Assembly: GCA_000004695.1 (NCBI GenBank)
Contig: CM000152.2
Coordinates: 320,001-384,000 of the forward strand
Direction of reading: 5' to 3'
DNA: 64,000 nt
DNA from: Dictyostelium discoideum
Lineage: Eukaryota
In this document: one piece after another, positions 3,607 to 9,843 of the stretch
Layout: each line of letters opens with the position of its first letter
Numbering within the stretch: position 1 is the first letter of the stretch
The notes under the pieces: generated by a model
What the model saw: the letters and a program-made list of their open reading frames with translations, nothing else
The model's database searches: none
What the model was told of the DNA's origin: nothing
Made by a program: the position numbers and the translations under genes

Positions 3607-3702
3607 CTGAATGATTTTTGTTTTAAATATAAATAAAAAAATAAATGAATTTTAGAATTAAATATTAAATAATTAAAATATTAAATAATGATATATACAT
3701 AC

Positions 3703-5752
<2,050 letters not shown>

Positions 5753-6137
5753 ATTATTAATTGTTGTACATAAACGTTGAGAGCAATGGGAATTAAAAAA
5801 AAAAAAAAAATAAAAAAAAAAAAAATAAAATATTTTTTCATTTTTTTTTTTTTTTAATTTAAATTTTTAAAAAAAATAAGAATTTTGTGTATAAAAATAG
5901 AGCACACATAATGATATAAAATATAAAAAAAAAAAAAATGAATGAAACCATTATGATTTTGAGCTTTTTTTTTTTAAACTGAAGATATAAATGTTTTTAA
6001 AAAATAAAAAATAATAAAAAAAAAAAAGAATTTTTTTTGAAAGTAATAATATATAATTTATTTGTAGTTTTGTAAAAAAGGAATATTGTTTTGGTTTTTT
6101 TTAAAAAAAAGGATAATAAAAAATAAATGAAACTAAG

Positions 6138-6189
<52 letters not shown>

Positions 6190-6426
6190 GGCGGGAATCA
6201 TGGAAAATTATTAAATTAAAAAAAAAAAAAAAAAATAATAATATCAATTAGTTACTTTCTGTTTAAAATGGTGTTGGTTTTGGAGTATGAAGAAAGTAAA
6301 AAAAAAAAGATATTATGTGAAATATAAATATAGATATATAAAAAAAGTAACATTAATCAAAATCAATAAGTAGGGAAAGGGGAAAACTTTGTAATGGAAT
6401 ATATCTGTTGCGGTATTTTTAAGACT

Positions 6427-6761
6427 CTAGAATGTACTGGTTGTTTGAACCAAGATGACCCCTTGAGCTCCACATTTTTGGCATGGATACATTGAATGTG
6501 GTGGCATTGGAATAAAGCCTGTTGATTTGCAAAGTGGACATGGTACTGATACAGTAAGTAATGCTGGGGAAGAAATCTTGCTAATTAATAAGTGTTGATT
6601 GCAAGTGCCTATTTTTAGAGTGAGAGAAAAAAAAAAATTTTTAAAGTTAGAAATGTTTTTTTTTTTTTTTTTTTATTGAAATTTTTTGTCGGGTTTTATT
6701 TATTTTTTTTTGATTACTTACTTGAATTATGACCAGGTTTACGACAACGAGAGCAAGGCAT
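6427..6761 (-). CDS. small 73-aa protein with an N-terminal CCHC zinc knuckle (C-X2-C-X4-H-X4-C). Two exons (6722..6761 and 6427..6608) with intron 6609..6721 (GTAAGT...AAAAATAG, phase 1)
   Basis: The window's least AT-rich stretch (about 55% AT versus about 78% overall) in an AT desert. AAAAATG start context, ATGCCTTGCTCTCGTTGTCGTAAACCTGGTCATAATTCAA|GTAAGT. Exon 2 is the only open frame (60 codons) across the island. Product: MPCSRCRKPGHNSSTCNQHLLISKISSPALLTVSVPCPLCKSTGFIPMPPHSMYPCQKCGAQGVILVQTTSTF. Confidence 0.4.
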
Positions 6762-6934
6762 TTTTAATATAATAATTTAATTTTAATTTTTATTTTTTTA
6801 TTTTTTTGAAAAAGAAATTATTGTTTTTATATATTTAATTATTTATTTATTTAATTAATTATTTTATTTATTTATTTTGAAAACAATATATGATTTTATA
6901 TGAATAATAATTATAAATTTTTAATTTTAATATT

Positions 6935-6990
<56 letters not shown>

Positions 6991-7135
6991 AAAAATGATG
7001 GATCATTATAATCTAAACAAATATAAAAATATCTCTTTTTTAATTGAATAAAAATTTATATAAATTTTTATAAAAAAAAAAAAAAAAAAAGAAAAAATTT
7101 TAGTTTAAATATTTTTTTTTTTTTTATTTTAATTT

Positions 7136-7169
<34 letters not shown>

Positions 7170-7347
7170 CTTTTTAATAAAATTAATTTTTTTTTTTTTT
7201 TTTTACGTTAAAAGTCGGGCATGCGTGTGCCTTTTGATCTGCCACAAAAAGAAGAATTTTTGTTGTCACTTTTTTACTTAAAAAAAATAAAAAAATAAAA
7301 AAATAAAAAAATCTAAAAATAAAAATCTTTTTTTTTTTATTTTTTTT

Positions 7348-9843
7348 TTATTTTTTTAATTTAATTAATTTTTCAGTTTGATGAAGTAATTTAAAATTTA
7401 ATTTAATTAATAAAAGTAATTGAGAGAAACCATTTTGGTTGAAAAATATTTTTGGAGAATTTGAAAATGTATAACGAGAAGCTTCATCTAAAATTTTATC
7501 GGTATAATAGATTGGAATTAAAGGTTTACCTCTATTTTCAGCCAATGAAATTTCATCACGAATTAAAGGTGTAAATGCAACCTCTGATATAATTACCACA
7601 ACTACCCAACTTGAGATAACTTTTTTCTCTCTTGGTACAATTGTGATACCATTCTCTTTAAAGAAATCGAATAATGGTTTAAAAGTTTTTTCACTATTTG
7701 GATCGAATGATATGAAAATTGATTCAGAACCAGAGATTGAATGAGGTATAGTATCAACATCATGTTTATTATCACTATCATCTTCATCCTCATTATCTCC
7801 ATCACCTGATTTTGAACTTTTTGAATCTTTAGTATTTAACATATTATAAACACCTTCTAATAAAACACTGAAAGAGTCATTATAGATTTCATATGATGAG
7901 AAATCGACCAATTGTGAACGGAAAATACAAGATTCCAAAGTTGGGTCGGTGATTTTAGTTTTTTCAGCCCAAATTGAAACCATTGGTAATTTTGAAAGAA
8001 AAGTTAACAATAGATTCACTTGATAGCTGAGGGTTAGGGATTTAGAAGAGACAAAGAATATATAACCATAGCAATTACGATTTTCATTTGATTCTGAACT
8101 AATTAAACAAGCTGTTATTAAATTGTCTTCTAATGAATACTTCAACCTATTGGCCAAGTCTACATATTCACTAGTGTAAACTATACCAATATCATACAAC
8201 TTATTTTGTTTCTTTATTTCAAATGCGACATCCTTATCCAATAAATCAAATGGTCTTTCATCTTGATAGTTTCTTTGTTTATGATTTGCACCTGCTTTAA
8301 TCGCTATCTCAAATTCCTTTATTGATAACTTTTTTGCGAAAAAATGTAAACAATTATCACCTGTTATCTTATTAGTGAAATTAATATCTGATAGTAGATT
8401 AGAAGCAACCGATTTTAAAGGCCATTTTAAGATTTCTGCATTGTAAAAGTATGGTGGTAAATTTTCTTTGTTTAAAGTTTTAAGATTTGGTGCTAAAATT
8501 TCTTCAACATTGAAAAATGTGACATCACGATAACCCAATCGTTTTTTGGCTATAATATGTAGCAAACTATCTCCATTACTATTCCTATAGGTAACTGCTG
8601 ATTTGGTATCACAATGATACCACATGTTTTTATAATGCTCCATTTTACCAGTCCACAATAATTGAGCCAATAACTCTTGTGGATTATCATAAAGTAATGC
8701 ACTATGATAAGAACCTGTTGAAACTTGACTTGGAAAACCAATGATCTCCTTACAATTTGAAATTGGTACAGTATCAGCATAAATCTCCTCCTCTGTCGCA
8801 GATTGACCATATCTATTCCAACCAAATGCAAAAACTTGATTATTTTGACTTCTCGCCAAAACATGTTTACCACAATCTGATGAACAATCAAAATCAATAA
8901 AACCACCACTATTACCATTTGCTGCTGCTGTCGTTGTTGTTGTGGTGGTGGTGGTGGTTGTAGTTGTAGCTTCAACTAAACATTTTGGAACTGATGAAGA
9001 ATATTCGTCAACAAATGTACCCCAACACCAAAAACTACCATTTTCACCAACTGCGCATGTGTAAGTACCACCACATTGAATGGTGGCGAATTTTTGAAAT
9101 GATTTAACTTTAATTGGGATTGGTAGTGATTTGTTGAATGATGAGCCATCGCCTAACTGATACTCTTCGTTCATACCCCATGTGTAGAGCTCGCCTTTTA
9201 GATCGATCGCACCCATGTGTCTATCGCCAATGGCGAGGGTTTTGATACCAATATTATCAAAGAAAACACAACGAAATGGTGTGTATTGGTCAGTTTGGTT
9301 ATTAATCCCCAACTGACCGTACTTGTTGTATCCCCATGTATACAACTTACGCTGAACGGTATCTTTACTAATGGCAGCAGACGACGCACCACCCGCATAC
9401 ACACTTTCAATGTTACTCAAGCCCGGCACGAGTTTGGGCTGATAGATAGCCAGGGTCTTCCCTTGACCCAAACGGCCCAGTGATGAACTGCCCCATGTCA
9501 AAACTTGCGATGAGGAAGTCAACGCTATTGAATGATCATTCCCGCATTGTAAATCTCTAATTGAGTGATTCATCTCCACTAGTGTTGGCTCTGATCTATC
9601 TTCAGTATCGCCTGTACCCAATTTACCAAAACTACCATTACCAAACATATATAAATTGCCTGTTCCAGTAATGAATCCTGTATGTTGCACACCACATGAC
9701 ACCTTTTTAACATTATAATAATTTGGTAATAAAGTTGGTATACCTGTATAATTATCTTGATTATAAATAAACTCTTTATCAATTTCAATACCAATTTGAC
9801 CATGAGAATTCTTACCAAATACAATCAATGCCCCAAATGCCAT
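7348..9843 (-). CDS. 831-aa multidomain protein: N-terminal RCC1-like beta-propeller repeats, two central ankyrin repeats, C-terminal approx. 250 aa with TIR-like motifs (...ESIFISFD..., ...SSWVVVVIISE...RDEISLAE...LIPIYY)
   Basis: Single uninterrupted ORF. Repeated G-x-N-x-x-GQLG / CGxxHT motifs typical of RCC1 blades. GDSLLHIIAKK and GDNCLHFFAKK...AIKAGANHKQRN ankyrin signatures. C-terminal region matches the TIR box1 (F/I-x-I/F-S-F/Y) and the hydrophobic strand-Ser-x-Trp/Glu-...-IPIFY-like pattern. Confidence 0.7.
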   Translation of the reverse strand: MAFGALIVFGKNSHGQIGIEIDKEFIYNQDNYTGIPTLLPNYYNVKKVSCGVQHTGFITGTGNLYMFGNGSFGKLGTGDTEDRSEPTLVEMNHSIRDLQCGNDHSIALTSSSQVLTWGSSSLGRLGQGKTLAIYQPKLVPGLSNIESVYAGGASSAAISKDTVQRKLYTWGYNKYGQLGINNQTDQYTPFRCVFFDNIGIKTLAIGDRHMGAIDLKGELYTWGMNEEYQLGDGSSFNKSLPIPIKVKSFQKFATIQCGGTYTCAVGENGSFWCWGTFVDEYSSSVPKCLVEATTTTTTTTTTTTTAAANGNSGGFIDFDCSSDCGKHVLARSQNNQVFAFGWNRYGQSATEEEIYADTVPISNCKEIIGFPSQVSTGSYHSALLYDNPQELLAQLLWTGKMEHYKNMWYHCDTKSAVTYRNSNGDSLLHIIAKKRLGYRDVTFFNVEEILAPNLKTLNKENLPPYFYNAEILKWPLKSVASNLLSDINFTNKITGDNCLHFFAKKLSIKEFEIAIKAGANHKQRNYQDERPFDLLDKDVAFEIKKQNKLYDIGIVYTSEYVDLANRLKYSLEDNLITACLISSESNENRNCYGYIFFVSSKSLTLSYQVNLLLTFLSKLPMVSIWAEKTKITDPTLESCIFRSQLVDFSSYEIYNDSFSVLLEGVYNMLNTKDSKSSKSGDGDNEDEDDSDNKHDVDTIPHSISGSESIFISFDPNSEKTFKPLFDFFKENGITIVPREKKVISSWVVVVIISEVAFTPLIRDEISLAENRGKPLIPIYYTDKILDEASRYTFSNSPKIFFNQNGFSQLLLLIKLNFKLLHQTEKLIKLKK

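Follow-up and report, generated by a model that had tools for sequence, protein, structure and literature searches.

Zinc-binding modules of only a few dozen residues are found in several well-described protein families. In the retroviral-type CCHC knuckles of nucleocapsid proteins and of CNBP, the second Cys is followed by a Gly, and the residues next to the first Cys and to the His on their C-terminal side, which are aromatic or hydrophobic, contact or stack on bases. DnaJ proteins have four CxxCxGxG motifs that make up two zinc centres, and anti-TRAP, a TRAP inhibitor of Bacillus-type bacteria, is about 53 aa long. A further arrangement is that of Nanos, with two CCHC units spaced CX2CX12HX10C and CX2CX7HX4C.

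Here we analyse a small minus-strand gene in a 64,000-nt stretch of the Dictyostelium discoideum genome (hereafter the window), whose product shares features with more than one of these systems. Its N-terminus resembles the CCHC knuckles of EIAV p11 and CNBP/Gis2 in its CX2CX4HX4C spacing, KPGH core, basic context and small size, but it has a single knuckle that is fused to an unrelated Cys4 hairpin. The best explanation overall, to which we assign a probability of roughly 0.55, is that a single-copy annotated gene encodes a small basic protein with two zinc modules, and that this protein would bind or chaperone single-stranded nucleic acid.

The DDB_G0278123 locus and its expression

Splicing the two exons by script, from the ATG at position 6761, gave a product of 73 residues, MPCSRCRKPGHNSSTCNQHLLISKISSPALLTVSVPCPLCKSTGFIPMPPHSMYPCQKCGAQGVILVQTTSTF (Table 1). 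The ATG lies in the context AAAATG, and in six of seven genomes checked it is preceded by in-frame stop codons at a distance of no more than 60 nt. An exact-sequence look-up found the protein to be identical to the D. discoideum AX4 protein DDB_G0278123 (EAL68234.1, XP_642147.1, UniProt Q54YQ5), which is described as hypothetical and carries the UniProt entry name "CCHC-type domain-containing protein". The stretch is a genuine protein-coding gene that had been annotated before as DDB_G0278123; it is uncharacterised but not new. This identity means that the initial annotation, which had proposed a two-exon minus-strand model for 73 aa, rediscovered the curated model, with the same product and the same exon borders to the base. 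The phase-1 intron falls within the codon for Ser14 and so splits the knuckle between H11 and C16. Both additional Cys pairs that had been placed after the knuckle are there too, as C37/C40 and C56/C59.

The gene is present as a single copy in the window and stands alone in an intergenic gap of 1595 nt (5753..7347). The gap holds no other ORF of note, a tRNA scan detected no tRNA in it, and a scan of positions 5700-7400 on both strands against Rfam in E-value mode returned no match, which agrees with its earlier description as an otherwise empty stretch of about 1.6 kb. The RCC1-like protein encoded upstream has RCC1 repeats in roughly the first 380 of its 831 residues. The remaining ~450 residues have no Pfam match at E <= 0.01, yet they are conserved across Dictyostelia, where orthologues cover about 100% of the query. 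Downstream synteny varies between species. The TTI1-like TPR gene that follows in AX4 has the same orientation, as does the large gene (about 1400 aa) that D. citrinum and D. dimigraforme have in this place, and the next called gene in D. firmibasis encodes a 182-aa LIM-domain protein on the opposite strand (locus L001, 11018-11851).

Table 1. Positions of the gene, its parts, flanking features and orthologous copies. Coordinates are those of the window unless a locus handle is given.
Feature	Coordinates	Strand	Description
Exon 1	6722..6761	-	40 nt; encodes MPCSRCRKPGHNS and the first base of Ser14; holds ligands C3, C6 and H11
Intron, phase 1	6609..6721	-	113 nt, 84% AT, GTAAGTAATC...AAATAG; GTAAGT donor
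Exon 2	6427..6608	-	182 nt including the TAG stop codon; residues 14-73
Coding span of the CX2CX4HX4C knuckle	6601..6755 (6755..6722 + 6608..6601)	-	residues 3-16, CSRCRKPGHNSSTC; intron between the two parts
Coding span of the Cys4 hairpin	6460..6540	-	residues 37-63, CPLCKSTGFIPMPPHSMYPCQKCGAQG; two CxxCxxxG motifs 15 residues apart
Conserved upstream block	6985..7054	-	includes TTATAATGxTxCATCATTTTTTATAAT; 225-290 nt 5' of the ATG; kept in four species
Conserved downstream segment	6403..6426	-	24 nt, AGTCTTAAAAATACCGCAACAGAT; directly past the stop codon; four-species and pairwise alignments
RCC1-like neighbour	7348..9843	-	831 aa; upstream of the gene
Neighbour with TTI1-type TPR domain	3665..5752	-	next gene downstream
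D. citrinum orthologue	L002 9025-9368		intact, unannotated
D. dimigraforme orthologue	L003 9284-9748		intact, unannotated
D. cf. discoideum orthologue	L008 5983-6337		intact, unannotated
Orthologue in second "D. discoideum" assembly	L009 6008-6364		intact, unannotated
D. purpureum copy	L004 13577-13788		MPCSKCRRRGHNSSTCTQNSFLLPLK...; exon 1, 133-nt intron and first 39 nt of exon 2

Two conserved segments flank the coding region. The upstream block contains a TATA-like element and a T6 run, from which we infer a candidate core promoter; alternatively, it could be part of the 3' end of the upstream RCC1-like gene. Across four species the downstream segment hardly varies, less than many codons do. 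It is presumably the start of the 3' UTR and may be a regulatory element of that UTR. An (ATA)n microsatellite of about 50 nt (~6937-6989) lies directly 3' of the upstream block and is longer in AX4 than in D. citrinum, D. dimigraforme and D. firmibasis. Some 80-140 nt past the stop codon of the RCC1-like gene there is also a G+C-richer island on the minus strand (~7205-7270), TGGCAGATCAAAAGGCACACGCATGCCCGACTTTTAACG, which is conserved no further than the closest relatives and is without a match in Rfam.

Base composition was less extreme than first described. The span 6427-6761 had been given as the least AT-rich stretch, with about 55% AT against about 78% overall, but we measured 67.8% AT for the span and 59.5% for the exons alone, against 76% for the window. 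In 21% of all 335-nt windows in the 64 kb, AT content is lower than in this span, and the minimum (52.5%, starting at 9163) lies inside the RCC1-like gene. The proposal that the coding sequence explains the local rise in G+C is nevertheless supported. Over the first two codon positions the G+C content reaches 0.48, more than in any other long ORF of the window, and GC3, at 0.26, lies near the upper end of local values (0.06-0.27). Most of the rise therefore comes from a protein composition that is rich in Cys, Pro, Gly and Ala and low in Asn and Lys.

A literature search with the identifiers DDB_G0278123, Q54YQ5 and XP_642147 found no paper text that names or studies the protein. The gene is, however, listed in the hourly RNA-seq study of development by Rosengarten et al. 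2015 (PMC4403905). In Additional file 7 (two of the three occurrences of the identifier in this file were located), the sheet filter_DOWN assigns it to DOWN_Hr11_gradual and DOWN_Hr12_gradual for filter development. Down-regulated calls in that study were made with baySeq (FDR <= 0.01) over the 1-4 h that follow a reference time. The listing at Hr11 and Hr12 therefore indicates that the mRNA persists until the tight-aggregate/mound stage, after which it declines significantly over the next hours. DDB_G0278123 is thus transcribed, by RNA-seq evidence at the level of the gene rather than of junctions or strand. The complete lack of transcription that had been named as an outcome against the gene is not what the data show, as it is listed as differentially expressed. 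The identifier did not occur in the portions of supplementary text seen for PMC6198379, PMC12821622 and PMC8386026 (a life-cycle proteome, a cell-type RNA-seq study and a REMI-seq mutant resource), in which the long files may be incomplete. Within the same limits, the supplementary text of the life-cycle proteome yielded no peptide from the protein, for which ISSPALLTVSVPCPLCK is an example of a tryptic peptide.

Two putative zinc modules

The protein has a mass of 7.8 kDa and a pI of about 9.2. It contains 7 Cys, 3 His, 9 Pro and 6 Lys or Arg, with no Asp or Glu, for a net charge of +6; acidic residues are likewise absent from the D. firmibasis protein and from the D. purpureum fragment. A filter-free profile search with HMMER, run over 1.84 billion representative proteins at E <= 0.001, returned the D. 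firmibasis orthologue and nine other proteins. All nine are repetitive and none is an orthologue; two have DnaJ-like CxxCxGxG repeats (P0007 and P0008) and three have repeated CCHC knuckles (P0009-P0011). An AlphaFold2 model built from a two-sequence alignment (mean pLDDT 48, pTM 0.19) was unusable and lends no structural support.

The C-terminal half of the protein had been given no interpretation in the initial annotation. Residues 34-69 contain two CxxCxxxG-hydrophobic motifs, with the pairs C37/C40 and C56/C59. The top-scoring curated models for the protein are those of anti-TRAP and DnaJ, all of them below their cut-offs: Pfam Anti-TRAP (PF15777) scored 20.9 bits over residues 34-69 (cut-off 32), NCBIfam RtpA (NF058604) 24.7 bits over residues 34-66 (cut-off 65), and Pfam DnaJ_CXXCXGXG (PF00684) 15.6 bits (cut-off 32.7). 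Full-length DnaJ models reached 11-16 bits against cut-offs of 377-556, and some of them align residues 2-66. Among solved structures, the hairpin matched anti-TRAP (2bx9, E = 0.69) and the zinc ribbons of L37Ae and TFIIB, with E values of 0.2-0.7. As in anti-TRAP and DnaJ, two CxxC pairs are each followed by a Gly and a hydrophobic residue, with a short loop between them and a GVIL end; the counterpart in 2bx9 reads CPKCERAGEI...CPACSGKGVILT. DnaJ-like repeat proteins such as P0007, which carries CNFCKGSGFQPGTPSYEYKPCQTCGGCG units, have the same motif layout.

The differences from both families are also clear. The motifs read CxxCxxxG rather than the CxxCxGxG of DnaJ, the first Gly being replaced by S42 and A61, and there is no J domain. 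Where DnaJ has four motifs, this protein has two (three if the start of the knuckle is counted), separated by a 15-residue loop. Unlike anti-TRAP, it is the product of a eukaryotic gene with a spliceosomal intron, it lacks a C-terminal helix of the anti-TRAP type, and its homologues were found here only in Dictyostelium.

The hairpin raises the possibility of a protein-protein route, in which it would dock, perhaps together with the N-terminal CxxCxxxG, in the manner of a DnaJ zinc centre or of anti-TRAP, and so modulate a partner, for which Hsp70-type chaperones, unfolded clients and RNA-binding proteins are candidates. Besides the identity of the best curated models, this route can draw on the residues that are invariant among orthologues (46-70), which fall inside the hairpin module, and on P0007 and P0008, which are among the few matches of the profile search. 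However, every score that points to it is below cut-off, the Gly that is diagnostic of CxxCxGxG has been lost from both motifs, neither the J domain nor the anti-TRAP helix is present, and the total absence of acidic residues fits a polyanion binder better. We consider such docking unlikely as the main activity of the protein.

The second-best Pfam score was for the Nanos zinc finger (PF05741; 18.4 bits over residues 3-44, cut-off 27). The stretches C3-x2-C6-x12-H19 and H51-x4-C56 resemble portions of the two CCHC units of Nanos, but the spacing fails: there is no Cys 10 residues past H19, the distance from C40 to H51 is 10 residues rather than 7, and H19 is replaced by Asn in D. purpureum. 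A metallothionein-like reading was also rejected as unlikely, since the Cys residues, about 10% of the protein, appear in fixed zinc-finger spacings. With all family scores below threshold, the protein belongs in none of these families.

The N-terminal module, CSRCRKPGHNSSTC, had been called a textbook retroviral-type knuckle. Its spacing deserves the name, being exactly CX2CX4HX4C, and none of the ligands C3, C6, H11 and C16 varies among seven genomes, that of D. purpureum being one of them. Its profile score does not, as Pfam zf-CCHC (PF00098) gave 7.4 bits (E = 6.8), below the gathering threshold of 20.8. The positions that carry the Gly and the base-contacting residues in nucleocapsid and CNBP knuckles are here S4, R7 and N12, so that the usual Gly and aromatics are absent. 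In the PDB the knuckle matches EIAV nucleocapsid p11 best, sharing 9 of its 14 residues with it (E = 0.041). The wording CSxCxxPGHNxxTC recurs in the multi-knuckle proteins P0009-P0011, where individual knuckles are near-identical (for example CSRCHKPGHNVRTC in P0011), but these are long proteins with numerous knuckles and nothing in common with residues 17-73, related by motif and not by orthology. Plant MYB-related factors have a similar N-terminal knuckle, CSHCxxxGHNSRTC, which is a lead only.

The exact retroviral spacing and the match to EIAV p11 are what recommend an origin as a domesticated Gag or nucleocapsid fragment of the Skipper, DIRS or TRE type, an idea raised in the initial annotation. 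The likeness is restricted to 14 residues, however, and 57 of the 73 residues are without a retroelement counterpart. None of the nine non-orthologous HMMER matches is Gag-like, so that in a library-wide profile search the idea found no support past the motif itself. The knuckle is also split by an intron, the gene occurs once in the window, and it is syntenic in seven genomes and flanked here by two cellular genes, RCC1-like and TTI1-like. A Gag origin is thus very improbable.

Conservation and purifying selection in group-4 Dictyostelium

Using the RCC1-like neighbour as an anchor, we fetched the corresponding loci from other genomes and recovered the gene copies by tblastn and manual splicing. 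D. firmibasis has an annotated 73-aa orthologue, 85% identical, just downstream of its RCC1-like orthologue. Intact 73-codon orthologues without annotation were found in D. citrinum, D. dimigraforme, D. cf. discoideum and a second "D. discoideum" assembly, and the D. purpureum copy ends with its scaffold (GL871353.1) at the contig end. Synteny beside the RCC1-like neighbour is kept in all seven genomes, and in all seven exon 1 is 40 nt long and is followed by a GTAAGT intron at the same phase-1 site, with intron lengths of 113, 133, 135, 122, 243, 130 and 133 nt. The D. purpureum sequence is strongly diverged from that of D. discoideum directly after the knuckle (TQNSFLLPLK vs NQHLLISKIS).

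Identity to AX4 is 84-99% in the exons and 35-81% in the intron, and intron identity drops as low as 35-51% where the exons remain at 84-92%. Pairwise dN/dS is 0.03-0.18, and the variable sites are distributed 9/10/32 over codon positions 1/2/3. The proposed frame is the only one of the six that is free of stop codons in all six complete copies, while each opposite-strand frame has 1-8 stops. The codons for C3, C6, P9 and H11 show synonymous changes, and Cys codons show changes between TGT and TGC. All 7 Cys and H11, that is the eight putative zinc ligands, are invariant in the six complete copies. Replacements among these copies fall at position 5, in the linker (27-35), in the first hairpin loop (38, 41-43 and 45) and at position 71, and nowhere else; residues 46-70 and, apart from position 5, the knuckle do not vary. 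These comparisons show that the gene is under purifying selection in group-4 Dictyostelium, and the claim of a small intron-containing gene is borne out by the retention of ORF, intron site and ligands in the six complete copies.

The plus strand carries GTAAGT at 6554 and TTTTTAG at 6612 with no open frame, as had been pointed out in describing a "mirror" pair of splice motifs. The motifs and the closed frames are real, but the pair has no significance. It is the reverse complement of Leu-Leu-Thr codons and of the A-rich tail of the intron, and in D. firmibasis the L31H codon change has turned GTAAGT into GTATGT, while the tail of the intron is different too; the pair therefore arose by chance and is without meaning. 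A locus without a protein, be it a chance ORF or a non-coding and possibly plus-strand RNA, could cite this pair and the peptide that was not found in the proteome text seen, but it is effectively refuted by the comparative data, as the codon-position bias, the low dN/dS and the single conserved open frame exclude both forms of it, the plus-strand motifs are not conserved and Rfam gives no match.

The reach of the family appears to be narrow. A word-indexed homology search found the D. firmibasis orthologue only. Residues 33-73 used alone as a query returned nothing, a search that missed even the known orthologue with which they share a 25-residue identical run. No copy was detectable within 10 kb on each side of the RCC1-like orthologue in Polysphondylium violaceum, Acytostelium subglobosum or Cavenderia fasciculata, and the metagenome contigs with another RCC1 orthologue were too short to judge the presence of the gene. 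The gene is provisionally confined to group-4 Dictyostelium (discoideum, citrinum, dimigraforme, firmibasis and purpureum); this restriction is provisional because the outgroups were examined at the RCC1-like locus alone.

A proposed role in growth and early development

In our preferred explanation, a basic protein with two zinc modules, the N-terminal module would be a knuckle of the retroviral type that holds zinc through C3, C6, H11 and C16, and the C-terminal module would be a Cys4 beta-hairpin that holds zinc through C37, C40, C56 and C59, like one zinc centre of DnaJ or anti-TRAP. From the motif spacing and the invariance of the ligands we infer that the protein binds two zinc ions in tetrahedral sites. 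The knuckle, the charge of +6 and the lack of acidic residues suggest a small protein that binds or chaperones single-stranded nucleic acid, probably RNA, an activity that is possible but to which we would give somewhat less than even odds. The hairpin would then provide a second contact surface, or else a surface for oligomerisation or partner binding, and the protein would act in growth and early development, before the fall of its mRNA after the mound stage.

The practical value of these results is modest. The correct two-exon model of a 73-codon gene was recovered from raw sequence, and the annotations of four recent Dictyostelium assemblies lack the gene, an example of how small genes with introns continue to be under-called. 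What had been a hypothetical protein can now be described more sharply, by two putative zinc modules, a lack of acidic residues and a restriction to group 4. A bolder proposal, which we regard as rather doubtful, is that it represents a new family of miniature two-zinc proteins, in which a CCHC knuckle is joined to an anti-TRAP/DnaJ-style Cys4 hairpin and acidic residues are absent, and that this family arose within or just before group 4 and provides a stage-specific regulator of RNA or of chaperone clients, switched off at the mound-to-slug transition. If true, such a lineage-restricted RNA or chaperone regulator of early development would be of interest to Dictyostelium biologists.
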